A stretch of DNA of 64,000 nt from Patescibacteria group bacterium (lineage in GTDB: Bacteria > Patescibacteriota > Patescibacteriia > JBAZBY01). The stretch is taken from positions 622,940 through 686,939 of the forward strand of contig JBAZBY010000001.1 in NCBI GenBank assembly GCA_041671225.1, given 5' to 3'. The stretch's first letter is position 1. Every line of letters starts with the position of its first letter. The translations under genes and the position numbers were made by a program. Below, piece by piece: positions 1,257 through 43,977 of this stretch. The notes below the pieces were generated by a model. The model saw only the letters and a program-made list of their open reading frames with translations. It was not told where the DNA came from and did not search any database.

Positions 1257-1865
1257 ATGGCAGACGATCTACGAAAAGAACGGACCGTTGTTTTAATAAA
1301 GCCGGATGGCGTTATGCGCGGTCTCTCGGGCGAAATTATAAACCGGTTTGAAAAAACAGGTTTAAAGATTATTGCCCTGAAAATGGTATGGATTGATAGA
1401 GAGATGGCTGGCAAGCACTATCCGGACTCTCGCACCGAGTTGCTTACAGGCATGGGTGAGAAAACACTGAAGACGTACGAGAAATATGGTAAGGATGCTA
1501 ATGAAGAGCTTGGTACCATGGATCCAACAGAGATTGGAAGAATGGTGAACAAGTGGAATATGGAGTTTCTTTCTAGTGGTCCGGTGGTGGCAATGATTCT
1601 TGAAGGGCTTCATGCCATTGATAATGTCCGCATGATTGCAGGCAACACCTTACCAGCCTTTGCAGAGCCCGGAACCATTCGCGGGGATTATTCCATTGAT
1701 TCTCCTGCACTTGCAAACGCAAACAAGCGAGCGGTTCGCAATATGATTCATGCATCAGGCAACCCAGAAGAAGCGCAGTATGAGATGGAACTCTGGTTTC
1801 AAGAGAAGGATATTCACAACTACAAGCGGGCAGACGAGGACGCGATGTTTGAAGGGCCGAAGTAG
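1257..1865 (+). CDS. ndk: nucleoside diphosphate kinase with ~45-aa internal insertion and C-terminal extension
   Basis: TVVLIKPDGV, SGPVV, NMIHASGNPEEA (active-site His) motifs; 202 aa vs ~140 typical. Confidence 0.8.
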   Translation: MADDLRKERTVVLIKPDGVMRGLSGEIINRFEKTGLKIIALKMVWIDREMAGKHYPDSRTELLTGMGEKTLKTYEKYGKDANEELGTMDPTEIGRMVNKWNMEFLSSGPVVAMILEGLHAIDNVRMIAGNTLPAFAEPGTIRGDYSIDSPALANANKRAVRNMIHASGNPEEAQYEMELWFQEKDIHNYKRADEDAMFEGPK

Positions 1866-1890
1866 GCCGCTCTATTTTGTATCGTAGACC

Positions 1891-1923
1891 GGACGGACTT
1901 CTCCAGCGGAAGTCCGTCCTTTG
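1891..1923 (+). terminator. rho-independent terminator after ndk
   Basis: perfect 11-bp stem ggacggacttc/gaagtccgtcc with 7-nt loop followed by ttt. Confidence 0.6.
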
Positions 1924-2280
1924 CATCGCGGCTGCCATTGTCAACCGCTCCCCGGCAAGGCCGGGTCGGGTATGACAAGCCAAGCTGGCAGCCGCTCGCA
2001 AGTCTACTTACAAAATACAGCGGCCTACTTCTCTAGAGTGGGGGGGGAAGAGAAGAAGTTCAGAATCGTTCGCCAGTCTGATGGAAAAATATATGAAGTC
2101 CTACAGATGAAGGATGGTAGTGTTTGCAGGCTTACGCGAGGGTGCTATAGTACGCCTGTCTGAAAGATAACGGGCTGTGGTTCTGCGACAAGCGTGGGAT
2201 AAACTCCGTCGGCCAGCGCGCACGAAGGCTCGTATGGCTCGCAGACTTGGATGCAGATAAACGTGCCTTGAAGGCCGAGT

Positions 2281-2354
2281 CGGGGTATGGCGCAGTTGGC
2301 TAGCGCGCTTGCATGGGGTGCAAGAGGTCGCCGGTTCAAGTCCGGCTACCCCGA
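2281..2354 (+). tRNA. tRNA-Pro (anticodon GGG)
   Basis: cloverleaf folds: acceptor cggggta/taccccg, D stem gcgc, anticodon stem cttgc/gcaag with loop atGGGgt, T arm gccgg-ttcaagt-ccggc; no encoded CCA; extra 7-bp flanking helix ggccgag/ctcggcc. Confidence 0.85.
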
Positions 2355-2491
2355 CTCGGCCCTTGAAGGGATCAAGCCCACCCAGCACCCGAGCTCATAG
2401 GGCGAGTGGTGCGGGATTCGGCCAGCCCGACCAATTCATACTTTGGGATTTTTGGTATTTCGGAGGGATATAAAATTAAAAACAGCCCGTC

Positions 2492-2520
2492 TTGACATTG
2501 TTTGTTAGTAGATGTAGTAT
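2492..2520 (+). promoter_or_regulatory. candidate sigma70-type promoter TTGACA-N17-TAGTAT upstream of ATP-grasp gene
   Basis: ttgaca 2492-2497, 17-nt spacer, tagtat 2515-2520. Confidence 0.4.
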
Positions 2521-2655
2521 TGTCGCCAATATTCTGCAAGACATCATTCTGTACACATGCATTCTCATCTTGTAACACTGAACCAGCGAGAAAAGGGCGT
2601 CTAATTTTCATCCTATTCGTTTCCCCGCGTTTTGCGGGTTTTCTTTTTTGTATCT

Positions 2656-4008
2656 ATGTCGATTCACGAATTGCAAACGTTCGCAAAAAGGTATTTCATG
2701 ACGGGTATCAATAAGGTTTCCTCTCTGCGCGTGCGTTCGGAGAAGAATACTACATTCGCGCTCAGCAGGTATTTCCCTGAAGGTACGGAGTATTTTTATG
2801 GGTATCCTACCGGAGAAGATTCGAATTTTTACAATGACGTACCGCCAATCATTGAGGAGCTCGTCTCTGCACGACCCCTTTCCGCTGCAGGAGAAGGGGT
2901 TCGTGTCATCCTTTTTGCCAATGCCGCACAGCATGAACAGATACAACTGCTGCGTGCGCTTGGCGTTCCGCTTGTCCCTGATCAGCAGATGATCCTGTTA
3001 CCGGCGGACATCGATGCCACGTTGATCGGTGTTGAGCGCAATGAAGCCGTGAAAGCCGCATTACGCAAGCGCGTCACACCGGGCAAGCTCATCATGGCGC
3101 AACCATACCTTGATTCTGAGCTGGCAGATCTCTATCAGATCCCGCCCGCACTTTCTGTCTGGTTGAACGATAAGAAGAACATGCCGTCGTATATATCAGC
3201 GTATTATCTGCCAAAGCGTTACGCATCATTCATGAACGGTGAGGAATTTTTCCATACCACAGCGGATCTTCCGGTACCCTGCGTCATTAAGATCTCATCT
3301 TCCAGCTCAGGTGATGGCGTGCGGCTGTGTATGACGCCGGAGGATCTTGCAGCTGCCAAGAACGATATGCGCGGGACGCATGTGAGTATCATCGCCGAAC
3401 AGTTCATCAGAGCGAAGAAAAATCTTGGTGTGCAGTTCGGGATACCGTATGACCGTTCCATGCCGGTGGAATTCGTGGGCGTGAATGAACAGATCACCAC
3501 TCCCGCAGGGTCATTTCTTGGCGGTATCATACATCCACAGGCACAGTATCCGCGATTCGAACACTTGCTGCATCTCTTACGCGAACGCATTTTACCATAT
3601 GCGCGGGACCTCGGTTGGTACGGACCCGGAGGCTTTGATGTGCTGTTGGGCGATGATGACCGATATTATTTTGTGGATGCGAATTTTCGTATGACGGGGA
3701 TGACTACTTTTTTATATGCAGCTGCCAATAGCAACGATGCGCGTATACGCCTGGGGTTCAATGGAACGTTATCCTGCTCGGAAGCATCGCTGTATCAGAA
3801 ACTCTTACCCCTTGCACATGTTGGCGGCCGCAGGCAGATATTCCAGACGATCTCTTTGATACGATCGGGCCATGACTGGCGTCTCAGTGGATTTGTGTTC
3901 GGCAAGGATTTTGCCGAACTTATCGCGAATGTGCAGGCGCTGCTCGATATCGGATTCATCTCTAAAGCACTTTCTGCGTGCGTCGCACAACAGCTGCGTA
4001 CGGAGTAG
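2656..4008 (+). CDS. ATP-grasp family enzyme (peptide/amide ligase-like), function unknown
   Basis: ORF 2632..4008; PCVIKISSSSSGDGVRLCMTPEDL resembles the ATP-grasp nucleotide-binding loop and is followed by IAEQFI; start codon uncertain (TTG 2632, ATG 2656 or ATG 2698). Confidence 0.55.
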   Translation: MSIHELQTFAKRYFMTGINKVSSLRVRSEKNTTFALSRYFPEGTEYFYGYPTGEDSNFYNDVPPIIEELVSARPLSAAGEGVRVILFANAAQHEQIQLLRALGVPLVPDQQMILLPADIDATLIGVERNEAVKAALRKRVTPGKLIMAQPYLDSELADLYQIPPALSVWLNDKKNMPSYISAYYLPKRYASFMNGEEFFHTTADLPVPCVIKISSSSSGDGVRLCMTPEDLAAAKNDMRGTHVSIIAEQFIRAKKNLGVQFGIPYDRSMPVEFVGVNEQITTPAGSFLGGIIHPQAQYPRFEHLLHLLRERILPYARDLGWYGPGGFDVLLGDDDRYYFVDANFRMTGMTTFLYAAANSNDARIRLGFNGTLSCSEASLYQKLLPLAHVGGRRQIFQTISLIRSGHDWRLSGFVFGKDFAELIANVQALLDIGFISKALSACVAQQLRTE

Positions 4009-4032
4009 GTACAGAACGTATACTTAAAGAAG

Positions 4033-4075
4033 TGCACCCCATGCAAGCACGCTAGCCAACTGCGCCACAGCCCGA
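4033..4075 (-). pseudogene. 5'-half fragment of a tRNA-Pro gene (about 40/44 nt identical to 2281-2324), inverted orientation
   Basis: reverse complement reads cgggctgtggcgcagttggctagcgtgcttgcatggggtgcac; no T arm or acceptor 3' side follows. Confidence 0.6.
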
Positions 4076-4121
4076 TGGCGCATACTATATACCACGACTC
4101 GTAATTCTGCAAAATGAAAAA

Positions 4122-4149
4122 GCCCAGATCCTCCTGTCTGGGCGTTTTT
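4122..4149. terminator. bidirectional rho-independent terminator between convergent ATP-grasp gene and purA
   Basis: stem gcccaga/tctgggc, 8-nt loop; A-run upstream and ttttt downstream. Confidence 0.55.
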
Positions 4150-4183
4150 CGCATATGTTGTATGCGCTATGCTGACCGCGATG

Positions 4184-5593
4184 TCAGCGAATGATCATGT
4201 GGTCCCTGTCGGGTCCGGTGCCGATGCGGTCGATGCGATGACCGCCGTGGCGCTCGATGGCGCGGATGTACTCCTGTGCCCGGAGCGGGAGCTTTTCGAA
4301 CTTCGTCTCACCAGTGATGTCCTCCTCCCACCCCGGCAGCTCGAGGTACTGCGGCTGAACACGCGCGTATTCCCAGGCGAGTTCCGGAATGCAGCCCTGC
4401 GGGAGCTGCTGTCCATCGAGCTCGTAGCCAATGCAGATTCGGAGCGTATTCAGTCCCGAGAGGCAGTCGAGCTTGCTGAGTACCAGCTCGTCCGGGTCGT
4501 TGACGTCGCAGAAGTAGACCTGCCACGTGCAATCGAACCAACCGGTTCGGCGCGGCCTGCCGCTTGTGGCACCGTACTCGTTCGCCGTGACGCGCAGATA
4601 CTGCCCGATCTCCTGGTCCGTCGCATGTCCGCCGTTGATCTTGGCGAGCATGTCCGTACACCAGGCCTCGCGCTGCTCCTTTGGGATGCGCTCTTCCTGC
4701 TGCGTCACCGCGTAGTCGCCGAGTTCCGTCACGAACGGACCGTTGCCAACCCGGCTTGCCACGAGCTTGTTCACGCCGATGCGCGTGCCAATGGCAGTCA
4801 CAGGAAGGCCGCTGCCCTGCGGGATTCCCGCAAAGGTGCACATGCCCTGGGTATTGAACCCCCAGGTGCCCCAGTACGGGTCCAGCATGAGCCCCTGCGC
4901 CCCTTCCCAGAGAATGGAGGCGCCGCGGTTCCATGCGTGGAGAAGCTCACCGCGTACATCCGTAACGTATGGCGCGAGCGCATCAGCAACCCCCAGCAGC
5001 TCATCAGCCATCTCTCGCGGACGTTTAACGAGCGGTGGATTCTCGAGGTGCTTGCCGAGCTCAGGATGTTCGAACACGGGGCGAAATGCCTCGTAGAAGT
5101 CCTTGAGCCATTGCAGCAACTCATCCGGGTGGTAGAGCATTCCCACCTTGGCGTTCAGGCGGAAGCCGATACTCCCGGCAATTCCGCACATCCCGCGCAT
5201 GGTTGTGTATGCCATACGTACGCCCTTGGCCTGCTCCACCCAGAGTTCAAGCGACCTGTGCCACTCGAACGAGAGGAAGCAACCGGCATCCACACCGAGA
5301 CTCTGGAGCTTCCCGCCCTTCTCCTGGAACTCCTTGATCTCAGCGAGGAGTTGAATGGGGTCAACCCGCACACCGCGCGCAAGCACGCAACGTGCGCCGG
5401 CGGCGGCACCGCTCGGTAGCAAGTGACCCACGAACTCGAAGTCGCCGACCTTGATGGTGTGACCCGCATTCGCGCCGCCTTCAAAGCGGGCGACGATGCT
5501 GCACTCTCTGCCGAGACGGTCGGTTTCCTTACCCTTGGATTCGTCGCCGGCAAAAACCCCGACGACCGCGTGGTTTACGCCTCGATGTGACAT
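4184..5593 (-). CDS. purA: adenylosuccinate synthetase
   Basis: GDESKGK P-loop, GGANAGHT, TSGRPRRTGWFD motifs; 469 aa; markedly GC-rich relative to neighbours. Confidence 0.9.
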   Translation of the reverse strand: MSHRGVNHAVVGVFAGDESKGKETDRLGRECSIVARFEGGANAGHTIKVGDFEFVGHLLPSGAAAGARCVLARGVRVDPIQLLAEIKEFQEKGGKLQSLGVDAGCFLSFEWHRSLELWVEQAKGVRMAYTTMRGMCGIAGSIGFRLNAKVGMLYHPDELLQWLKDFYEAFRPVFEHPELGKHLENPPLVKRPREMADELLGVADALAPYVTDVRGELLHAWNRGASILWEGAQGLMLDPYWGTWGFNTQGMCTFAGIPQGSGLPVTAIGTRIGVNKLVASRVGNGPFVTELGDYAVTQQEERIPKEQREAWCTDMLAKINGGHATDQEIGQYLRVTANEYGATSGRPRRTGWFDCTWQVYFCDVNDPDELVLSKLDCLSGLNTLRICIGYELDGQQLPQGCIPELAWEYARVQPQYLELPGWEEDITGETKFEKLPLRAQEYIRAIERHGGHRIDRIGTGPDRDHMIIR

Positions 5594-5697
5594 GTCCTTT
5601 ACCTCTTCTTTCGGTTGTCGGAGAGCAAACGTGAACGGCTCGACCTTAGCTGTTTTTTGCGTGATTGTAAAGCGGAATATGGTATAGTTACTGTGTT

Positions 5698-6255
5698 ATG
5701 CAACTCAAGCTCTACATCGCCGGAAAGGTTTCTCCAAACTCCCATTTTGGTACGCACGATTGGCGTGATGCATTTTGTGTTGAACTTGAGAAGAAGACGG
5801 GTTTGGAGATAAAAAATTTAGATCCCGCAAAATCACAATCGGATTTATTTTTGGATGAAAACAACAGCAAATTAATGGTTGGCCGGGATTCCTATATGAT
5901 TCGCATGGCTGATGTTATTCTCGTCAATCTTACTGATGATATTAGTGTTGGGGGTTCGCATGATATGCTTATCGCGAAGTATTACAAGAAATACCTTATT
6001 GGCCTTGCTCCAAAAGAAGGAAAGTTCAATAAATCTGTAACCACCCTCGGAGAACGCGAATACAAGAACTGGATTCACCCTTTTGTTTTGGAAACGTGTG
6101 ATGCGCTCGTTGAGGATATTGACCAACTTGCCGTTTGCTTGAAGGAGTTTATAGAAGTGCCACCAACAGAGATAAAGGATATTGATATCTTCGAGCAAGC
6201 CAGACAGTATTACGAGGAAAAATTTTATCCAGATGATACATTTCTCCATTCTTAA
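5698..6255 (+). CDS. nucleoside 2-deoxyribosyltransferase / DNPH1(Rcl)-like fold protein
   Basis: KLYIAGKVS N-terminus and ADVILVNLTDDISVGGSHDMLIA block match the YFCGSIRGG ... DVVVAEVTxPSLGVGYELG pattern of the family, but Asp replaces the nucleophile Glu; AT-rich gene. Confidence 0.5.
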   Translation: MQLKLYIAGKVSPNSHFGTHDWRDAFCVELEKKTGLEIKNLDPAKSQSDLFLDENNSKLMVGRDSYMIRMADVILVNLTDDISVGGSHDMLIAKYYKKYLIGLAPKEGKFNKSVTTLGEREYKNWIHPFVLETCDALVEDIDQLAVCLKEFIEVPPTEIKDIDIFEQARQYYEEKFYPDDTFLHS

Positions 6256-6263
6256 ATAACACT

Positions 6264-6665
6264 ATGGAACTTCAAGTCGGTGTAAAAATTCTTCTCAAAA
6301 ACCCTGAAGGGAAGTTTCTGCTTACACGCCGCAATCCAAAAAAATACCCTGAGGTGGGACCAAAGTGGGATATTGTTGGCGGACGGATTGATCCCGGCAC
6401 GCCGCTTCTTGATAATCTCCGCCGCGAGGTGAAAGAAGAAACCGGTATGGACTACACCGGCGATCCGACGCTTGTTGCGGCGCAGGATATTTTGCGCGTC
6501 CCCGGTCGGCATGTGGTTCGGCTCACGTATATCGGGGACATTGAAGGCGATCCCCAGCTTTCAGATGAAAGTCTGGAGTACAAATGGTTCACACGCGAGG
6601 AGCTGGTGCAGAATGAGGATCTGGATATCTACGTGAAAGAGTTGCTCGAAAAGGGGACTCTATAA
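6264..6665 (+). CDS. NUDIX hydrolase
   Basis: Nudix box GGRIDPGTPLLDNLRREVKEETG. Confidence 0.8.
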   Translation: MELQVGVKILLKNPEGKFLLTRRNPKKYPEVGPKWDIVGGRIDPGTPLLDNLRREVKEETGMDYTGDPTLVAAQDILRVPGRHVVRLTYIGDIEGDPQLSDESLEYKWFTREELVQNEDLDIYVKELLEKGTL

Positions 6666-6678
6666 TTCTTACGACACA

Positions 6679-6707
6679 TTGACACGCGCTACGACAGCGT
6701 ATAGCAT
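6679..6707 (+). promoter_or_regulatory. candidate promoter TTGACA-N17-TAGCAT for arsR-ccdA
   Basis: ttgaca 6679-6684, 17-nt spacer, tagcat 6702-6707. Confidence 0.35.
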
Positions 6708-6738
6708 TTAAGTACTTTCGCAATTATTAAATGGTTCT

Positions 6739-7056
6739 ATGTTGAAGGATACGCAGATTGCACGCCTTCGCAAAGCTCTTTCCAGGGATAAGGAAAAGCT
6801 TCCGGAATTTTTTGACGCGCTTGCCGACAAAAGCCGTTATCGCATCTTTCTTCTTCTTTTAGAAAACAAAGGATTGTGCGTGACGGATATTGCAAAGGTG
6901 CTTGGCATTTCTGTTCCCGCGGCGTCGCAGCAGTTCAAGATTCTGGAAAAAGCCAGCGTGGTGCAGCGAGAACGCATGGGACAGATGACATGTTATTGCG
7001 TTGACACCACAAATCCAACAGTAAAGTCCATCATCAAGCTCATCGGAGAAAAATAG
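6739..7056 (+). CDS. ArsR/SmtB-family HTH transcriptional regulator
   Basis: SRYRIFLLLLENKGLCVTDIAKVLGISVPAASQQFKILEKASVV winged-HTH typical of ArsR. Confidence 0.75.
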   Translation: MLKDTQIARLRKALSRDKEKLPEFFDALADKSRYRIFLLLLENKGLCVTDIAKVLGISVPAASQQFKILEKASVVQRERMGQMTCYCVDTTNPTVKSIIKLIGEK

Positions 7057-7059
7057 GAT

Positions 7060-7824
7060 ATGGTTGCGCTCATTGTTCCTGCATTCATTGCCGGAATCTT
7101 CATGTTTTTGGCTCCGTGCACACTCCCGTTAGTGCCGGGGTATCTTGCATTCATCAGTGGTGCGTCTTTGACGGATCTTGAAAATCCTACGGTCGCCGGG
7201 CAGATGCGAAAAAAAGTATTCATGAACGGTTTGTTCTATGTTGCGGGCTTTAGTGTCGTTTTTATTCTGATGGGCAGTCTCTTTGGTCTTGGCGGCGCGG
7301 CACTGGTGAAGTATCGCTCGCTTTTCACGCAGATTGGCGGCGTGTTCGTCGTCATGTTCGGTTTGTATATGATGCACGCGTTCACGATTCCCTTTGTTGA
7401 TCGTTTTTTGCAGCAAGATCATCGCGTGCGCTTCACCGCACTCAAGCCCGGTAATCCAACAAGTTCACTTATTTTTGGAGCCACATTCGCGTTTGGCTGG
7501 TCACCATGCGTTGGTCCGATTCTCGGCAGCGTTCTTCTTCTTGCATCATCCACTGCAACGGTTGGACAGGGAGCACTGCTGCTTGCTGTGTTTGCACTCG
7601 GCCTTGCCGTTCCCTTTTTGCTTCTTGCGTATGGCATTGGCTCAGCCATGCGCGTCATTCGTCGCGCTGCAAGGTTCCTCCGATTTTTTTCTTTTATTGG
7701 AGGCGTATTCCTCGTTATCCTTGGCGGATTAATGATCTTTGATCATTTTGGCCTTATGACCCGCTGGTTCTATCAACTTTTCTCCTTTCTTCATTATGAG
7801 AAGAGCTTGCTAGACTTTTTGTAA
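7060..7824 (+). CDS. ccdA: cytochrome c biogenesis / thiol-disulfide transporter CcdA (DsbD-like) membrane protein
   Basis: two conserved Cys in TM segments (APCTLPLVP, WSPCVGPILG); multi-TM. Confidence 0.75.
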   Translation: MVALIVPAFIAGIFMFLAPCTLPLVPGYLAFISGASLTDLENPTVAGQMRKKVFMNGLFYVAGFSVVFILMGSLFGLGGAALVKYRSLFTQIGGVFVVMFGLYMMHAFTIPFVDRFLQQDHRVRFTALKPGNPTSSLIFGATFAFGWSPCVGPILGSVLLLASSTATVGQGALLLAVFALGLAVPFLLLAYGIGSAMRVIRRAARFLRFFSFIGGVFLVILGGLMIFDHFGLMTRWFYQLFSFLHYEKSLLDFL

Positions 7825-7865
7825 TCTTGCATGATGTGCATATCTACCATTAAGAAAAAAGCATA

Positions 7866-8543
7866 GTGCGGCTCGCACGATATTTAAGCATTGCCGGTGT
7901 TGCAAGTAGGCGTAAGGCCGAAGAGTTGATCACCGCGGGAAAGGTGAAGGTGAACGGAAGCGTGCATCGTGATTTGGGTAAGCAAATAGATCCTGAAAGC
8001 GATGTGGTTGAATACGGCGGGAGAAAGCTCGCGGCAGAAACAAAAGTCTATTATAAGGTGCACAAACCCGTCGGGTATGAATGCACGGTCGGCGGGACAT
8101 ATGCAAAGAAGCGCGTTACCGATCTTGTTCCAGAGACGCCGCGCGTCGTTCCCGTTGGGCGACTCGACAAAGATTCCAGTGGTTTGATGATCCTCACGAA
8201 TGATGGCGACCTCGCGTATGAACTCACCCATCCAAAGTTTGAGCACACAAAGTTGTATGAAGTGACCGTGCAGGAAAAGATGAGCCCGAGCAGCGCAAAA
8301 AAATTATGTTCCGGAGTACATCTTGAAGACGGAACGACTGTCCGTGCAGATGCAGCAACGCTGATCAATCCTCATATGCTTCACATCACGTTACACGAAG
8401 GGAAAAACCGTCAGATTCGTCGCATGCTTGCCGTCTTGCACCTTACGGTCACATCACTTGTTCGTATTCAGGAGGGGAGGATCACGCTTGATGATCTCCC
8501 GCCTGGCGGATATGCTCAGCTCACACGAAGTGATATTCTTTGA
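7866..8543 (+). CDS. rluB: pseudouridine synthase, RsuA/RluB family (S4 domain + PSU catalytic domain); GTG start
   Basis: S4 motif LSIAGVASRRKAEELI; HKPVGYECTV; catalytic GRLDKDSSGLMILTNDG. Confidence 0.8.
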   Translation: MRLARYLSIAGVASRRKAEELITAGKVKVNGSVHRDLGKQIDPESDVVEYGGRKLAAETKVYYKVHKPVGYECTVGGTYAKKRVTDLVPETPRVVPVGRLDKDSSGLMILTNDGDLAYELTHPKFEHTKLYEVTVQEKMSPSSAKKLCSGVHLEDGTTVRADAATLINPHMLHITLHEGKNRQIRRMLAVLHLTVTSLVRIQEGRITLDDLPPGGYAQLTRSDIL

Positions 8544-8558
8544 TATACTACTTTTTGT

Positions 8559-9194
8559 ATGATATTTGATCTTCTCTTCCAAAATACCCCGCTCTTCTTT
8601 GCAATCGTCTTTGCGTTTGTTGTATCCATCTCTGTGCATGAATTTGCGCATGCATTGACCGCAACGCAGCTTGGCGACCCTACGGCAAAGAATATGGGGC
8701 GGCTGACACTCAATCCTCTTTCGCATATCGATCCCATGGGCATGCTTTTGGTGTTGTTCATTGGTTTTGGCTGGGGGCGTCCCGTGCCATTCAACCCGCT
8801 CAACCTCCGCAATCAGCAGTGGGGTCCAGCATTCATTTCTCTTGCAGGACCAATCACAAACATTGCCATGATGCTGCTTGCTGGTATTGCACTCCGGATA
8901 TTTGGCCCGTCGCTTGGCGCAGAGAATATGCTCGTGTATTTTCTTGTCTTTATGGTGCAACTGAACTTAATTCTTGCCATTTTCAACCTCATTCCTCTCC
9001 CGCCGCTTGATGGTTCCAAGGTGCTTTTTGGCTTTTTACCCAGCAGGTTTTCTCATATTCAAATGACCCTTGAGCGCACAGGTCCACTGGCGCTCTTCGG
9101 CCTCATTCTTGTTGATCGACTTTTACTTGGCGGCGTGATCTTCGGGGGCCTCTTTACCTGGGCTTTTGGCCTCATTGAGGGTCTTTTTCTCTAG
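8559..9194 (+). CDS. site-2 protease (peptidase M50) family membrane metalloprotease
   Basis: HEFAHA zinc motif in TM helix, multiple TM segments, LxxLxxxDG motif near C-terminus. Confidence 0.7.
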
Positions 9195-9207
9195 GAAGTG
9201 CCCTAAG

Positions 9208-9236
9208 TTGACAGCAGAGAGACTGGGTGGTAGTAT
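9208..9236 (+). promoter_or_regulatory. candidate str-operon promoter TTGACA-N17-TAGTAT
   Basis: ttgaca 9208-9213, 17-nt spacer, tagtat 9231-9236, about 80 nt upstream of rpsL ATG. Confidence 0.45.
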
Positions 9237-9315
9237 CCCATCCGGTTTCTCAAGAGCGTGGCGCTCACGTTTTTTAGTCGCTAAAAAGACTTCGCAACTC
9301 GCGAAACGGCTTCAA

Positions 9316-9735
9316 ATGCCAACTATTTCACAGCTCGTCCGTAAAGGACGCACATCAACGAAGGCAAAGTCCGGTACTCCGGCACTGCAAACATCACTGA
9401 ACGCACTGAAGCGCAAACGTGTTGCGCTGAGCAAAGGATCCCCATTTAAACGCGGGGTCTGCGTCAAAGTGACCACTTCAACACCAAAGAAGCCGAACTC
9501 AGCTCTTCGGAAGATCGCTCGTGTTCGCCTTTCAAATGGGCAGGAAGTCACCGCGTATATCCCCGGTATGGGGCATAACCTTCAGGAACACTCCGTTGTG
9601 CTCGTTCGTGGCGGACGCGTGAAGGATCTTCCAGGCGTACGCTATACTGTGGTTCGTGGTGTGTATGATACGCAGGGCGTGGAAGGTCGTAAGCAGAGCC
9701 GTTCTCAATACGGCGCGAAGAAGCCAAAGGAATAA
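9316..9735 (+). CDS. rpsL: 30S ribosomal protein S12
   Basis: [12 protein letters not shown]... ; internal ATG of ORF 9166..9735 gives 139 aa. Confidence 0.92.
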
Positions 9736-9738
9736 CAC

Positions 9739-10203
9739 ATGCGCGGTAAACCAGCACCAAAACGGGTTACAACCCCGGACGCAAAATACCATAATGTAAC
9801 GGTTTCCAAGTTCATCAATAAGTTGATGTACGGGGGCAAGAAATCTGTTGCTGAAGGCGTTGTCTACGATGCCTTTGCATTGATCGAGAAGCGAACCAAG
9901 AAGGATCCTCTCGAGGTTTTTGAACAGGCTATTCAGATGATCTCACCATCTTTGGAAGTAAAGTCCCGCCGCGTTGGAGGCTCAAACTACCAGATTCCTA
10001 TTGAAGTGCGCGGTGATCGAAAGATCGCGCTTGCAATGCGCTGGATTCTTGAGGCTTCACGCAAGAAGAAGGGAAAAGCGATGTCAGAATGCCTCGCTGA
10101 GGAAATTGTTGCTGCAACTGAGAAACAAGGCGACGCTTGGAAGAAGCGCGAAGATGTCCACCGCATGGCAGACGCCAACCGAGCATTTGCTCATTTTGCT
10201 TAA
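9739..10203 (+). CDS. rpsG: 30S ribosomal protein S7
   Basis: 154 aa, typical S7 sequence ending ...RAFAHFA. Confidence 0.92.
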
Positions 10204-10208
10204 GACCA

Positions 10209-12305
10209 ATGGCAGAATCAACTGTAGCACGAGATTATCCATTAGACCGCGTCCGTAACATCGGAATCATCGCACATATTGATGCTGGGAAGACAACGGT
10301 CACCGAGCGAATTCTTTTTTATACCGGCAAAAAGCACAAGATCGGCGAAGTGCACGAAGGCAAAGCAGAAATGGACTGGATGGAACAGGAACGCGAACGC
10401 GGTATCACTATTACCTCTGCTGCAACAACGTGTTTTTGGAATAAGCACCGCATCAATATTATTGATACGCCGGGTCACATTGATTTTACGGTTGAAGTGC
10501 AGCGGAGTTTGCGCGTTTTGGATGGCGGCGTGGTGGTTTTTGATGGCGTTGCGGGCGTAGAGCCGCAGTCCGAGACGGTGTGGCATCAGGCAGACAAGTT
10601 CAATGTGCCGCGCATTTGTTTTATCAATAAGATGGATCGTACCGGCGCAGATTTTTACTTCGACCTTGATTCCATTGCAGAGCGCCTGACAAAAAAAGCG
10701 CACCCCCTACAATTACCCATTGGCGCTGCCGAGACATTCACTGGTTTGGTGGATCTTTTTGAACGTAAAGCGCGTATTTATAAAGACGAAGACGGAAAAG
10801 AATGGGAAGATGCAGACGTACCAGAGGACATGAAGGAAAAAGTTGAAGCGTACCGCGCAAAACTCGTTGAGGCGATTGTGGAACACGATGAAGCACTCAT
10901 GAGCGCTTATCTTGAAGGGAATGAACCTTCAATCCCAGATCTCAAAAAAACACTTCGCAAAGCAGTGATTGCAAATGAGCTTATCCCAGTTTTTTGCGGT
11001 TCTGCGCTAAAAAATAAAGGTGTGCAATTTTTGATGGATGCAGTCAATGATTATCTTCCAAGCCCTCTCGACGTGCCACCGGTTGCAGGTACGGATCCGG
11101 ATGATTTTGAAAAGAAGTTGACCCGCAAGACCAATGAAGATGAGCCGTTTACTGCATTAGCGTTCAAAATTGCAGCAGATCCTTTTGTTGGTAAGCTGGC
11201 GTTTTTCCGCGTATATGCAGGGACACTCCACGCAGGATCCTATGTGTATAACCCACGTACCCGTAAGAAGGAACGCATTGGTCGCATTGTTCGTTTGCAC
11301 GCAAACAGCCGCGAAGAAGTAGACGTTGTCTATGCCGGTGAAATTGCTGCCGCAGTGGGACTCAAAGAAACCGTGACCGGAGACACGATCTGTGACCCAG
11401 ACCATCCTATTCTCCTTGAATCGATTCAGTTTCCTGAGCCGGTTATTGCGGTTGCGATTGAGCCAAAGACGAAGCAAGACCAGGAAAAAATGGGCGTTGC
11501 ACTTTCGAAGCTTGTTGAAGAAGATCCAACCTTCCGCGTGAAGGCGGATTCAGAAACAGGTGAGACGGTCATCTCTGGTATGGGCGAACTTCATCTTGAT
11601 ATCATTGTGGATCGCATGAAGCGCGAATATAAAGTGGAAGCAAATGTTGGTAAACCACAAGTGGCATATCGTGAAACAATTCGTAAGGAGGCAGAAGCAC
11701 AAGGCAAGTACATCAAACAGAGCGGTGGTCGTGGTCAGTATGGCGACTGTCATATCCGCGTTGAGCCATTGCCAACGGGTGGAGGATTTGAATTTGTTGA
11801 TGCTGTGAAGGGTGGCGTTATTCCTCAGGAGTACATCCCAGCAGTGCGCAAAGGTATTGAAGAATCACTCGATAATGGCGTCGTTGCCGGGTATCGGATG
11901 ATTGATGTGAAGGCAACGCTCTACGATGGTTCGTACCATGACGTGGACTCTTCTGAAGCCGCATTTAAGATCGCTGGTTCCATGGCATTTAAGGAAGCAT
12001 CGCGGCGCGCAAAACCGATACTGCTTGAACCAATCATGGCAGTGGAAGTGATCACCCCGGAACAGTATATGGGTGATGTGATAGGCGATATCAACTCCAA
12101 GCGCGGTCAGGTTGAAGAAATGCGTGACCGTGGCGCTGGTAAGGTGATCGATGCAAAGGTGCCGCTTGCTGAACTCTTTGGATACGCAACGCAGCTTCGT
12201 TCTATGACGCAAGGCCGCGCATCATATTCCATGGAATTCCATGAATATCAGGAAGTGCCGGGAAATGTGGCCAAGGAGATTGCCGGCGATACCACAAAGG
12301 CGTAA
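10209..12305 (+). CDS. fusA: elongation factor G
   Basis: [30 protein letters not shown]...; 698 aa from internal ATG of ORF 10137..12305. Confidence 0.93.
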
Positions 12306-12314
12306 ACTACCTGC

Positions 12315-13664
12315 ATGGAAGCTCAGGGGAAGGACAACGCACAACAAGGAAGGATTTCTGTCTGGACGATTTCAACCATCGTACTTTTTGTGTTGTTGAT
12401 CGCCGGCCTACTGTATTGGGCGAGCATCACGCGAAAATCTTTGGCGCCTGCATTTAGCCGTAACGATATTGCTTTTACAGAACAAGACGCACTACCCGCG
12501 ACCATTGTTGATGATCAAAGCTTTTTGGGAGAAGATCCACGCTTGGTCTTTGCTGAGCGCACAGTTATTGGCTTTGATGCACAGGGAAATGGTCGTTATC
12601 ATACACGCCTTTTTCAATCTGATCGCTCCGGCGAACGCCTCTTTTCGTTTTATGAAACAGAGGATATTACTTTTGAGCAGCTCTCTCCGTACACCGATCA
12701 GTATCTTGTGATTCATTCCGCGTTGCTTGGTACGGATCCACAAGTAATCAACTATTCTGGAGAGCCCGCCGAGGATATTTTTGTTCCAGAGAGTATTGGT
12801 AATCTTTTTTCCGAGATCTTCTCTGCTGATGGGAATAAGCTTGCCTATATTGATTTTGGTGATGCGAATTATGGTACCGATGAATTGGAAGTGATTACTG
12901 AAACGAGTATTGTTGTTCGTGATAGTGCTACTGGTGAAGAAATAAGCGTACCAACGAGCATCTTCACGCATGGGGATATTCAGTACGCGCGTTTCTTCCT
13001 TCGAGCATTTTCTGATGACAATGCAATTCTCTACCTCTCAGCAGTCTGGCCTGGGCAGGAATTTGGCGATCCGGAATCACTTTTTGCCGTTGATTGGGCA
13101 GCGGGTACCGCGCAAGAACTTGTTTATTCCTCGCTCGAAGACCTTGGCGCAGAACAAGTATTAGAGCTCGTCGGTGTTTATCCAGAACATGGATTTGCGC
13201 TTTTTAATCGTGGCCCGCTCATTCCAGAGAGTGATGGAGGCCTCATTGACCGCGTCCGCTTGGAACGTTTTGATTTGGCGACTCAGGAAATGACCACGGT
13301 GTATGAAGAGGGTAGTGGCAGTATTTCAAATCTCATTCAAGACCCGCTTTCTCCGGATGGAACCCGTATTGTTGTAGAAAATGACCAAATTTCCGGAGGT
13401 TTTACCGTTGTGGACATTTTGACGAATGAGGTTTTACCCGTCGCTGAGAAGGGGGTATTTATGGGTTGGGCAGGAGATCGTAATCACCTCGTCTATGAGA
13501 TCCGCATGGATGATCCAAATGAAGGGAAGCCTTTTATTACACTGAAATCCGTCGATTTATCAAGCGGGAGTATTTTTGAAGTGTATCGCCAAACAGTTCT
13601 TCAAGAAGGCACTGGCCTGAACAAGGAAGGTGATATTCTCTACAGCTATATTACTACGAACTAA
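12315..13664 (+). CDS. membrane-anchored hypothetical protein with PD40/TolB-like beta-propeller repeats, inserted between fusA and tuf
   Basis: N-terminal TM helix (ISTIVLFVLLIAGLLYW); repeated S(A/P)DG(N/T)(K/R)(L/I) motifs (SADGNKLAYI, SPDGTRIVV). Confidence 0.55.
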   Translation: MEAQGKDNAQQGRISVWTISTIVLFVLLIAGLLYWASITRKSLAPAFSRNDIAFTEQDALPATIVDDQSFLGEDPRLVFAERTVIGFDAQGNGRYHTRLFQSDRSGERLFSFYETEDITFEQLSPYTDQYLVIHSALLGTDPQVINYSGEPAEDIFVPESIGNLFSEIFSADGNKLAYIDFGDANYGTDELEVITETSIVVRDSATGEEISVPTSIFTHGDIQYARFFLRAFSDDNAILYLSAVWPGQEFGDPESLFAVDWAAGTAQELVYSSLEDLGAEQVLELVGVYPEHGFALFNRGPLIPESDGGLIDRVRLERFDLATQEMTTVYEEGSGSISNLIQDPLSPDGTRIVVENDQISGGFTVVDILTNEVLPVAEKGVFMGWAGDRNHLVYEIRMDDPNEGKPFITLKSVDLSSGSIFEVYRQTVLQEGTGLNKEGDILYSYITTN

Positions 13665-13729
13665 TTTGGCTAATATTAGCTAGAAGTTTGGTTTTAAGCG
13701 CTGTACACAAAGAAAAGAGGTATGAGCCC

Positions 13730-13758
13730 TTGCAATAGCACAGCCTCCCTGCTATACT
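13730..13758 (+). promoter_or_regulatory. candidate tuf promoter TTGCAA-N17-TATACT
   Basis: ttgcaa 13730-13735, 17-nt spacer, tatact 13753-13758; about 115-nt leader. Confidence 0.45.
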
Positions 13759-13877
13759 GGGCACTGCCTCAATTTTCGAAAATGTCGGAAAATCGGGGCT
13801 AAATCAATTATCAATACACACTGACACTGCATTCTGCAGCGTACGTGAAGTAATAAGCGTAAGTATTCACCAACGTT

Positions 13878-15059
13878 ATGGCAAAGTACGAACGAAATAA
13901 GCCGCATGTGAACGTCGGAACCATTGGTCACGTTGACCACGGTAAGACAACGCTCACCGCTGCAATTCTCAAAACCCTTGGCGACAAGGGCTTTATCGCG
14001 CAGTCAAAGGGAGTGGATGAAATTGACGCGGCTCCAGAAGAAAAGGAGCGCGGAATTACCATTGCTACTGCTCACGTCGAATATGAAACAGCAGCGCGTC
14101 ATTATGCGCACGTTGACTGTCCTGGACACGCAGACTATGTGAAGAACATGATCACCGGTGCTGCACAGATGGACGGTGCAATTCTCGTCGTATCCGCTGC
14201 TGACGGCCCAATGCCGCAGACACGTGAACACATTCTTCTGGCGTACCAAGTCGGTGTGCCTTCTATTGTGGTTTTCCTGAATAAGGTTGACCAAGTAGAT
14301 GACCAAGAACTCATTGATCTTGTTGAAGTTGAAGTTCGTGATCTTCTGAAGAAGTATCACTACGATGGCGACAATGTGCCGGTTATTCGTGGTTCTGCTC
14401 TTAAAGCACTTGAAGGCGATGCGGCAAACCAGGATAAGGTTATGGAACTCATGAAGGCATTGGATGAGAGCATTCCACAGCCAGAGCGTCCCGTTGACCA
14501 GCCCTTCCTTATGCCGATTGAAGATATTTTCTCCATTGAAGGTCGCGGTACTGTTGTCACTGGCCGTATTGAACGCGGTGTTATTAAAATCAACGAGGAA
14601 GTTGAAATTGTGGGTCTTCACGACACCACCAAGACCGTTGTTACTGGTATTGAAATGTTCAATAAAGAACTTGATCAAGGTCAGGCTGGCGATAATGCTG
14701 GTGTACTGATTCGCGGCACAAAGAAGGAAGATGTTGAACGCGGTCAGGTACTTGCAAAGCCAGGTACGATCACTCCACACACTGAATTTGACGCAGAAGT
14801 GTATGTGCTTACCAAAGAAGAAGGTGGACGACACACCCCATTCTTTAAAGGGTACAAACCACAGTTCTATATTCGTACCACAGATGTTACGGGTGAGGTA
14901 GAACTTCAAGAAGGTACAGAAATGGTTATGCCAGGTGATACCACTAATGTGAAGATCAAGCTCGTTGCACCGATTGCACTTGAAGAGAAGCAGCGCTTCG
15001 CTATCCGCGAAGGCGGGCACACTGTTGGCGCTGGTGTTGTGACCAAGATCACTAAATAA
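13878..15059 (+). CDS. tuf: elongation factor Tu
   Basis: [30 protein letters not shown]...; 393 aa. Confidence 0.95.
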
Positions 15060-32422: not shown

Positions 32423-32486
32423 GGCTTGTCAGAATACAATTTTTGCTTTATACTCCTTCAGTTCTTTGCATAATAGTAACCGCCCC

Positions 32487-32531
32487 GCGGGCGCCTATAG
32501 CTCCGTGGCACGCGCACCTGGTTTTAACCAG
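32487..32531 (+). pseudogene. degenerate 5'-part copy of tRNA-Lys (acceptor/D/anticodon arm, anticodon loop 1 nt short)
   Basis: gcgggcgcctatagctccgtggcacgcgcacctggttttaaccagg vs intact gene at 32783. Confidence 0.55.
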
Positions 32532-32573
32532 GTGTATGCGTAAGTACATATCATTTTGAAATAATAATCACTT

Positions 32574-32650
32574 CGCGGGCGCCTATAGCTCAGTGGCACG
32601 CGCACCTGGTTTTAACCAGGGTGGAGTGGGGTCGAGGCTGCCGAGGAGCA
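32574..32650 (+). pseudogene. second degenerate tRNA-Lys copy, with decayed T arm
   Basis: ttcgcgggcgcctatagctcagtggcacgcgcacctggttttaaccaggg...gtggggtcgagg. Confidence 0.5.
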
Positions 32651-32712
32651 ACTGAACTGCTTCAGTTGCGTGCAGCCGAGACGGGCGACGCGTTGTCGCC
32701 AAAGGCGACCGC

Positions 32713-32756
32713 GTCGCACCCTATGAGTTCGTCGCACCCTATGAGTTCGTCGCACC
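32713..32756 (+). repeat. 18-nt tandem direct repeat gtcgcaccctatgagttc x2.4
   Basis: directly visible; sits between the degenerate and intact tRNA-Lys copies next to perfect hairpins (gcaactgaa/ttcagttgc). Confidence 0.75.
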
Positions 32757-32782
32757 ATACCTTAACATGCTGCCCCCATGGG

Positions 32783-32858
32783 GCGCCCATAGCTCAGTTG
32801 GTAGAGCACCTGGCTTTTAACCAGGGTGTCGGGGGTTCGAATCCCTCTGGGCGCACCA
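32783..32858 (+). tRNA. tRNA-Lys (anticodon TTT), CCA encoded
   Basis: gcgccca-ta-gctc...gagc-a-cctgg-cTTTtaa-ccagg-gtgtc-ggggg-ttcgaat-ccctc-tgggcgc-a-cca; flanked by 13-bp inverted repeat gctgcccccatgg / ccatgggggcagc. Confidence 0.88.
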
Positions 32859-32888
32859 TGGGGGCAGCACCAGCGCATACTTCGTGCG

Positions 32889-32907
32889 TCCCTCTGGGCG
32901 CACCACG
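32889..32907 (+). repeat. duplicated tRNA-Lys 3'-end fragment (att-like)
   Basis: tccctctgggcgcaccacg identical to the 3' end of the intact tRNA-Lys. Confidence 0.6.
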
Positions 32908-32928
32908 AAGTGATTATGAGAATGTAAG

Positions 32929-32947
32929 AATCCCTCTGGGCGCACCA
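32929..32947 (+). repeat. second duplicated tRNA-Lys 3'-end fragment (att-like)
   Basis: aatccctctgggcgcacca identical to the 3' end of the intact tRNA-Lys. Confidence 0.6.
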
Positions 32948-33173
32948 CGGGGCGGTTCATGGTAGAGAGCATTCACCCTTTTGGCTTCAAAGGAGAATTT
33001 GTGTTTGGAAATAAAAGAAGTGGGCGTTCATGATCTCTTGACAATATTCTTCCGCAGTGCATACTTTGGGCACTGTTCATTCACTGAAGGCATCCTTGCG
33101 TCGCTTCTTCGCTTGAGGTGGTGTTTGGTGTCTTCGTAAAGGCGCTCTACGCGCAAAGCGAGGTGAAAGAAAC

Positions 33174-43514: not shown

Positions 43515-43589
43515 GGCCCCATCGTCTAATGGTTAGGACGCCAGGTTCTCATCCTGGTAATAGGGGTTCGATTCCCCTTGGGGCTACCA
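43515..43589 (+). tRNA. tRNA-Glu (anticodon CTC), CCA encoded
   Basis: ggcccca-tc-gtct-aatggtta-ggac-g-ccagg-ttCTCat-cctgg-taat-agggg-ttcgatt-cccct-tggggct-a-cca. Confidence 0.88.
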
Positions 43590-43771
43590 TACATACGGCC
43601 GCCATTCATGTGGCGGGCGGATGTATGGTATTCTTAGAAGGAGAATCGAACGGGCAGAAGCGAGACAAGCCGCTTGCCAAAGGCGCGGCGTAGGCGAGCG
43701 ATCGGTTCATGCAAGCACGCGCAGCATGAACCGCTGCCCAGGACAACGAGCCCGCCAAACAGCGGGCGAGG

Positions 43772-43793
43772 CGGAATTCCCCTTGGGGCTACC
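43772..43793 (+). repeat. duplicated tRNA-Glu 3'-end fragment (att-like), left copy
   Basis: ggaattccccttggggctacca; 19 nt identical to the tRNA-Glu 3' end. Confidence 0.6.
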
Positions 43794-43977
43794 ACTACAA
43801 AACGTTCCGACATTTCCCCAGATTTTTCATGGGCGCGGTTTGCGGCTGCAAAGGCTGCGGGATGTGGTGCATTGCCATCAAGAATCCATACACGCCTGCA
43901 CAGGACCTTTTCCGCGCCGACCTCGTGCTGGATTCGCTGGAAAATATGAATGAAACAATTCTTGCGCGCATTTCGGA

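Follow-up and report, generated by a model that had tools for sequence, protein, structure and literature searches.

Partial, apparently non-functional copies of tRNA genes lying beside an intact gene are a known kind of relic, and the tRNA-Pro fragment described here is most likely such a tRNA gene relic. It is accompanied, as other pseudo-tRNAs are, by similar scars at other tRNAs, and it departs from them in that it comprises the 5' portion of the gene, has a promoter of its own, is inverted and carries an allele that seems to be older than the live gene. Williams is said to have found in 2002 that the att duplications made by integrases at tRNA genes cover the 3' part. The classic integrase scars are direct repeats of that part, and the copy in our window (the whole 64,000-nt stretch of DNA that was analysed) is unlike them. 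Another close system is the intron-less homing of free-standing GIY-YIG endonucleases, as with the Seg proteins of T4, notably SegB in the T4 tRNA cluster (PMC2330249), and in fungal mitochondria the target genes are partly duplicated beside free-standing homing endonuclease genes. Metagenomic loci with this type of tRNA-Pro have a small GIY-YIG gene abutting the intact tRNA together with displaced exact pieces of it, and co-conversion, in which a segment of the target is replaced, would account for remnants of an earlier gene on either side of a newer one. The window, however, lacks a GIY-YIG gene (profile and tblastn search), the tRNA is a bacterial chromosomal one rather than that of a phage or organelle, and homing does not normally yield an inverted stub. 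The split tRNA genes of Nanoarchaeota, whose 5' and 3' halves are transcribed separately, share with our fragment a 5' half with its own promoter. Here, though, the break falls at position 42 and not at 37/38, the same anticodon is served by an intact tRNA, and the window holds neither a partner 3' half nor a complementary joining sequence for the stub, the fold of which has no special structure. To our knowledge, the archaeal splicing endonuclease is absent from bacteria. In the literature we found no description of the present pattern in Patescibacteria.

The fragment lies in the gene order gatA, response regulator, NDK, tRNA-Pro, ATP-grasp, purA (minus strand), hypothetical protein, Nudix, ArsR and DsbD, with pilin genes and ligA farther upstream and the S12 and S7 ribosomal genes and the EF-G gene farther downstream. 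The features of the locus are these:

2123 to 2151, plus strand: P1, a promoter-like site (TTTGCA, 17-nt spacer, TATAGT, with TG) from the promoter scan, orthologous by alignment to the tRNA-Pro promoter of the related contigs L044, L045 and L006
2171 to 2180, plus strand: 5' stub CGGGCTGTGG, the first 10 nt of the probably older B allele, 19 nt 3' of P1
2266 to 2280, plus strand: 5' flank complementary to the 3' flank, extending the acceptor stem of the live tRNA (sequence and predicted fold)
2281 to 2355, plus strand: live tRNA-Pro(GGG), A allele, acceptor strand CGGGGTA, no encoded CCA (ARAGORN, Rfam)
2356 to 2370, plus strand: 3' flank CTCGGCCCTTGAAGG, which pairs with 2266 to 2280 (sequence and predicted fold)
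2419 to 2433, plus strand: 3' remnant CGGCCAGCCCGACCA, comprising the T-stem 3' strand, the acceptor 3' strand CAGCCCG and the ACCA of B, with a unique 12-mer
2698 to 4008, plus strand: ATP-grasp gene encoding 436 aa when read from the ATG at 2698; its family is conserved in Patescibacteria and it is syntenic in L006
4033 to 4075, minus strand: inverted tRNA-Pro copy, positions -1 to 42, B allele (CGGGCTG at the start, T at 26), from repeat search, blastn-short and profile
4076 to 4113, minus strand: P1', a promoter-like site (TTTGCA, 18-nt spacer, TATAGT; hexamers within 4084 to 4113) from the promoter scan, with 8 nt separating it from the shared T at 4075
4122 to 4143, no strand assigned: bidirectional intrinsic terminator common to ATP-grasp and purA (terminator prediction)
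4184 to 5593, minus strand: purA (adenylosuccinate synthetase), GC 0.62 (gene annotation)

The inverted unit as a whole thus occupies 4033-4113 on the minus strand, 81 nt, and consists of the promoter-like site, the 8-nt spacer and tRNA positions -1 to 42.

An earlier note, made from the letters of the window, had reported an inverted copy of the 5' half of tRNA-Pro(GGG) between the convergent ATP-grasp gene and the terminator shared with purA, and both the copy and its placement hold: the fragment lies 3' of the ATP-grasp stop (4008) and before the terminator. ARAGORN places the live tRNA at 2281-2355 and Rfam scores it at 63.1 bits at 2281-2354; a repeat search returned inverted arms at 2280-2322 and 4033-4075 of 43 nt and 93% complementarity, that is, 40 of 43 identical positions. 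The three mismatches fall at tRNA positions 5, 7 and 26, the longest exact run is 18 nt, and blastn-short matched positions 8-42 to the inverted copy at an E value of 9e-13. A profile built from 20 distinct tRNA-Pro sequences matched 4074-4033 on the minus strand over positions 1-42 (E 1.8e-11), with nothing else close in the window. The copy breaks off at position 42, three bases into the anticodon stem's 3' strand, and lacks a variable loop, a T arm and the 3' strand of the acceptor; its cloverleaf is incomplete, and neither ARAGORN nor Rfam called a functional tRNA gene at 4033-4075. The window contig, from a Patescibacteria (CPR) genome, was assembled by MEGAHIT, and contig L005 from another sample (Logan SRR6484324) is 100% identical to it over 2326-13944, a span that includes ATP-grasp, the fragment, the terminator and purA. 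Since both junctions of the fragment are reproduced in this independent assembly, misassembly is excluded. We also considered whether the ending of four contigs inside tRNA-Pro (L005, L044, L045 and L048) was a sign of the inverted copy in relatives, and rejected this because the shared run of 18 nt is shorter than k=31; these breaks are better explained by many organisms of one metagenome sharing an identical tRNA core.

The copy did not come alone. A promoter scan of 1800-4300 gave three sites, two of which, P1 upstream of the live tRNA-Pro and P1' directly upstream of the inverted fragment, form a pair with identical hexamers, and TTTGCAGNNTTACG was found at only two sites in the window, the P1 region and 4100-4113. 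Local alignment of the regions upstream gave p ~0.04, or ~0.01 with the start of the tRNA added, so that homology of P1 and P1' has modest statistical support. An extra 10-12 nt between the -10 hexamer and the tRNA is common to P1 of the window and L044; the P1' unit aligns instead with the short spacing of L045 and L006, from which it appears that the inverted unit keeps the ancestral format of the locus. Both hexamers of P1' are intact, the spacer between them has diverged from that of P1, and the 42 tRNA bases of the stub are undecayed, in that every position occurs in functional alleles. This combination fits a recent truncation or selection and not a long-dead relic, and it gives some weight to rival readings, among them import from an L045-like relative.

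The alleles hint at the order of events. The acceptor strand of the inverted fragment reads CGGGCTG (allele B, with the specific bases C5 and G7) against CGGGGTA in the live gene (allele A), and intact tRNAs with the B acceptor occur at L011, L015, L017 and L024, and with the A acceptor at L013, L022, L026, L032 and L034. The remains of B around the live gene are two displaced partial copies in direct orientation, a type to which the inverted stub does not belong, and both were picked out post hoc: the 10-mer CGGGCTGTGG occurs twice in the window, in the inverted fragment and at 2171-2180 (0.13 expected per window), and the 15-nt CGGCCAGCCCGACCA begins 64 nt past the live tRNA, contains an exact 12-mer unique in the window and matches the 3' end of intact B-type tRNAs (L011, L015) exactly over 13 nt, its gapped score being reached by 0 of 1000 shuffles. 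Extension of this 3' remnant to tRNA position 24 (2390-2433) was not retained, the gapped part adding almost nothing over the 13-mer, and neither were decayed tRNA pieces proposed at 1965-2003 and 2208-2255, which score at noise level and the first of which L044 shares as conserved non-tRNA sequence. Folding of 2152-2445 is predicted to pair the 3' stub with the 5' stub (2171-2177) around the live cloverleaf, which itself sits on an acceptor stem lengthened by its complementary flanks. The stubs on both sides and the fold together suggest that the live A gene is nested within the remains of a B gene driven by P1. Two contigs found through an NDK search and syntenic over gatCA-RR-NDK (RR, the response regulator) point the same way. 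L044 (NDK 86%) has the same P1, then TCGGGCTGCGG in the place of the window stub at 2171-2180, a 30-nt leader and an A-allele tRNA, and L045 (NDK 83%) has the promoter, a slightly decayed B positions 1-27, 13 nt, and a third type of tRNA-Pro(GGG). Judging from these sequences, B was probably the ancestral resident gene and was later replaced, since its stubs lie both around the live gene and behind the orthologous promoter in L044 and L045.

The most informative relative for the region between the repeats is L006, where the order pilins-ligA-gatCA-RR-NDK-tRNA-Pro(GGG)-ATP-grasp-purA(-) is as in the window, with identities of 85% for the response regulator, 81% for NDK and 53% for both purA and ATP-grasp, the last being its best homologue. 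A fourth, very different tRNA-Pro(GGG) follows the promoter immediately there. No partial tRNA-Pro copy was found anywhere on this contig, and its ATP-grasp/purA spacer holds a hairpin only. The spacers of NDK/tRNA-Pro/ATP-grasp/purA measure 59, 116 and 93 nt in L006 and 415, 342 and 175 nt in the window. The last is therefore 82 nt longer in the window than in L006, which matches the 81-nt inverted unit. As an anchor for synteny in its own right, purA was tried and set aside, for a contig scan returned only relatives at 33-34% identity, and the homologues at 58-63% lie in unrelated purine clusters.

Partial copies of other tRNAs in the window, to which the earlier note had also pointed, are borne out for tRNA-Lys and tRNA-Glu. 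The tRNA-Lys gene (32783-32858) has two 5' halves upstream (32486-32532 and 32574-32620) and two 3' ends downstream (32889-32905 and 32928-32947), so that it lies within two nested shells of older copies, the outer flanks of each layer being complementary to each other; for the 491-nt region nested helices are predicted, with a fold z of -9.9. In the case of tRNA-Glu, a 19-nt copy of its own 3' end is found 186 nt downstream. We found no other repeat family in the window linking the Pro, Lys and Glu loci. Beyond the window, a metagenome scan with tRNA positions 9-42 as the query returned 33 loci, ~26 of them distinct, which are grouped here by tRNA-Pro type and not by host taxonomy. All 33 have a full tRNA-Pro(GGG) gene of this type, with varied acceptor alleles, and at least 5 of the ~26 distinct loci have exact partial tRNA-Pro copies beside the intact gene (L013/L022/L034, L020, L028/L033, L031/L036 and L035). 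These pieces are often contiguous parts of the tRNA split by short GC-rich inserts, and L022 is distinguished from L034 by a 112-nt segment with a second copy of tRNA positions 1-17 at its end. Small GIY-YIG ORFs lie at most 300 nt from tRNA-Pro in five locus types (L031/L036, L028/L033, L013/L022/L034, L027 and L040), three of which also bear fragments; the ORFs match Pfam PF01541 at E values of 9e-17 to 6e-11 and SegE weakly. In L031 and L028 the GIY-YIG ORF runs into the tRNA and ends at the TAG of the D-loop, and its exact product is present in the protein collection. A weak tblastn match to GIY-YIG at 10620-10820 of the window lies inside EF-G and was discarded as spurious. No copy of the tRNA-Pro core was found in viral contigs, and none of the other loci examined for tRNA-Pro fragments has an inverted 5' stub.

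How, then, did the inverted unit arise? The earlier note took the tRNA and its partial copy as brackets around an orphan ATP-grasp gene at the edge of a GC-rich purA block, and explained the orientation by an inversion or rearrangement after integration; in this account the two copies would be the att sites of an element, later rearranged, that carried ATP-grasp. Integration often takes place at tRNA genes, and the tRNA-Lys and tRNA-Glu of the window do have direct repeats of their 3' ends, but the 4033-4075 copy is no direct repeat of the tRNA 3' part: it has the wrong orientation, as the same note recognized in setting aside a simple att duplication, and the wrong half of the tRNA (positions -1 to 42), and it carries the promoter of the gene, which is unexpected for a copy derived from attP. 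Nor is the ATP-grasp gene an orphan: 123 homologues reach E<=1e-3, with 38-53% identity, mostly from Patescibacteria, to which almost all of the named ones belong. ATP-grasp is the sole gene between the repeats, and L006 keeps it in the same place in the same gene order. Its GC content (0.514) is near the window mean (0.496), and purA is equally GC-rich in L006 (0.628 against a locus mean of 0.555), so that the purA block is no newcomer. Taken together, the synteny of ATP-grasp, its ordinary GC content and the GC-rich purA of L006 indicate that ancestral DNA, rather than an insert, lies between the repeats. There is no integrase or recombinase gene within ~8 kb of the fragment and no transposase or nuclease gene at the tRNA-Pro locus of the window. 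What survives of the account is the rearrangement; prior integration of the bracketed DNA left no sign, and we consider the att reading hardly credible. Programs that predict islands from tRNA fragments would report false ones here, as the earlier note did. An invertible segment is another way to read inverted repeats of 43 nt that flank a gene with a promoter of its own: recombination between the copies would turn the 1.7-kb ATP-grasp segment around and exchange the promoter and 5' half of the tRNA. Such a switch is very unlikely, because the longest exact run is as short as 18 nt, no invertase or recombinase gene lies nearby, and a flip would give a tRNA with a C-C mismatch in the acceptor stem and disrupt the live gene; moreover, all retrieved assemblies have the same single orientation.

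Two further readings take the promoter and the undecayed tRNA bases of the unit more seriously. The unit could be what is left of a second, minus-strand tRNA-Pro gene 3' of purA, an old paralogue or a transfer from a close relative, possibly together with purA, from which a recent deletion removed all that followed position 42. A promoter of its own, built in the ancestral format and with a -10-proximal part nearer to L045 than to P1 of the window, would be natural for such a gene, as would the intact tRNA part, and the nearest purA homologues (58-63%) are non-syntenic while the syntenic L006 reaches merely 53%, a hint that the history of purA is not simply vertical. Yet the relatives of purA have no tRNA-Pro just downstream of it and L006 has nothing there, and the near equality of the 81-nt unit and the 82-nt spacer excess fits a small insertion better than a larger truncating deletion; a second gene is rather unlikely on this evidence. 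Alternatively, the stub may be functional, whether through an RNA from P1' that starts with the 5' half of tRNA-Pro and runs antisense into the 3' end of ATP-grasp, through a small RNA like a tRNA half, or through an anti-tRNA-Pro sequence in the 3' UTR of the ATP-grasp mRNA. Lying between the ATP-grasp stop and the terminator, the unit is predicted to be transcribed on the plus strand within that mRNA, which would thus contain a 43-nt anti-tRNA-Pro sequence; on the other strand, the intact hexamers of P1' are correctly spaced and stand 8 nt from the tRNA start, and the tRNA bases have not decayed even though the promoter spacer has diverged. Against a function, the fold of the minus-strand RNA is not above background (z = +1.4), Rfam gave no match, no nearby minus-strand terminator was found, and the unit is absent from L006. 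We regard a functional stub as unlikely.

The interpretation we prefer, and hold to be somewhat better than an even bet, is that the inverted stub is a scar of rearrangement from the replacement of a tRNA gene, so that 4033-4113 on the minus strand would be a dead 81-nt stub of an older tRNA-Pro(GGG) gene. It can be hypothesized that in this clade of Patescibacteria the site directly 3' of NDK was ancestrally occupied by B, under the control of P1, and that a later copy of tRNA-Pro was inserted into or behind B, leaving the promoter, the 10-nt 5' stub and the 15-nt 3' stub. An inverted copy of the promoter and 5' part, still in the ancestral format, would have been placed in the spacer between ATP-grasp and the shared terminator, likely by illegitimate recombination or double-strand-break repair. 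The template may have been the older copy of the genome itself or DNA of a close relative, and the inverted copy may have reached its place as a fragment captured in break repair, by a switch of template, or as DNA imported from a close relative. With no inverted 5' stub at any other locus examined, this inversion step is without parallel. As to what drives the turnover, the fragments and GIY-YIG genes at the metagenomic loci make replacement by an endonuclease a reasonable model, in which small free-standing GIY-YIG homing endonucleases would target the tRNA gene; as the window itself has no GIY-YIG gene, the driver is proposed here by analogy only. A broader version, which we put forward tentatively and think possible rather than likely, is that small self-propagating cassettes repeatedly overwrite tRNA genes in this lineage of Patescibacteria and leave nested 'fossil shells'. 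Each cassette would bring a fresh copy of the tRNA, often with long complementary flanks, and at some loci it would also carry a GIY-YIG homing endonuclease, the ORF terminating at the D-loop TAG; the stub would then be a by-product, or an antisense promoter that was retained.

By itself the stub is a small genomic scar, and its value is that of a dated fossil. At a single syntenic locus no fewer than four different tRNA-Pro(GGG) sequences have been present, namely B, A and the types of L045 and L006, which suggests that the single-copy essential tRNA genes of very small genomes can be replaced in place. If the link to the GIY-YIG genes is true, selfish elements of the homing type would target chromosomal tRNA genes in uncultured bacteria, which would bear on the evolution of tRNA genes and on horizontal transfer. 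And if the cassette reading is true, this would be a previously undescribed selfish system of gene replacement acting on the chromosomal tRNA genes of bacteria.

The purA gene at 4184-5593 has a GC content about 12 points above that of its surroundings, and the purA of locus L006 (11408-12847), a relative with the same order of NDK, tRNA-Pro, ATP-grasp gene and purA, lies about 7 points above its locus mean. While the window purA shares only 53% identity with this syntenic copy, it reaches 58-63% with its closest homologues (contigs L008-L010), which are located in unrelated purine-biosynthesis clusters.

Upstream of the ATP-grasp gene there is a promoter-like site, rated good, at 2492-2520 (TTGACA-17-TAGTAT), followed by an intrinsic-terminator-like hairpin at 2624-2638, 60 nt ahead of the start codon, an arrangement that resembles a leader or an attenuator. 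Public records list a 79-aa open reading frame on the minus strand (2372-2611) as a gene; it had no Pfam match, and part of it coincides with the tRNA 3' remnant at 2419-2433.

The non-coding stretch between NDK and the promoter-like site upstream of the live tRNA-Pro (1866-2122) shows patchy conservation with positions 4614-4790 of L044, a relative sharing the gatCA-RR-NDK synteny, in patches such as ttttgtatcgtagacc, catgacaagcc and cctacagat, and its counterpart in L006 is only 59 nt long. No Rfam match was found for 1866-2122; an RNA not yet described is one possibility for this conserved stretch, a decayed gene another. A 23-nt inverted repeat, its arms (1859-1881 and 2009-2031) 96% complementary and enclosing 127 nt, takes the NDK stop codon and last two codons into its left arm; neither L044 nor L006 has it.

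Partial tRNA copies also occur elsewhere in the window. In the tRNA-Glu(CUC) region (43515-43794), the 3' end of the tRNA (positions 57-75) is repeated exactly over 19 nt, 186 nt downstream, with no gene in between. On the minus strand of this insert, 43708-43720 agrees exactly over 13 nt with the inverted tRNA-Pro stub (4033-4075, stub positions 23-35), the T26 variant of the stub included, a match of marginal significance. At 32486-32952, older copies of tRNA-Lys form two nested shells around the live gene:

32486-32532, older tRNA-Lys 5' half
32574-32620, older tRNA-Lys 5' half
32783-32858, live tRNA-Lys(UUU)
32889-32905, older tRNA-Lys 3' end
32928-32947, older tRNA-Lys 3' end

The two 5' halves are 98% identical to each other and each about 85% identical to the live gene. 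In every layer, including the live gene, the outer flanks are complementary to each other over 10-13 nt, and the predicted fold of the region is one of nested helices (z = -9.9).

Among the metagenomic loci carrying the same tRNA-Pro(GGG) type, genes with exact displaced self-pieces are directly adjoined by small GIY-YIG nuclease genes (L031/L036, L028/L033, L013/L022/L034, L027 and L040). In L031 and L028 the nuclease reading frame and the tRNA share 20 nt, with the D-loop TAG serving as the stop codon of the frame. A 112-nt insert and a 17-nt tRNA duplicate distinguish L022 from L034.

The flanks of the live tRNA-Pro (2266-2280 and 2356-2370) are complementary to each other, extending its acceptor stem by about 8-15 bp. 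The same GAGT-tRNA-ACTC design is seen again in several metagenomic loci (L019, L022, L035 and L042), and CCA is not encoded in the tRNA-Pro genes with such stem-lengthening flanks. These complementary flanks may form a stem used in processing, or they may be the termini of a mobile cassette.
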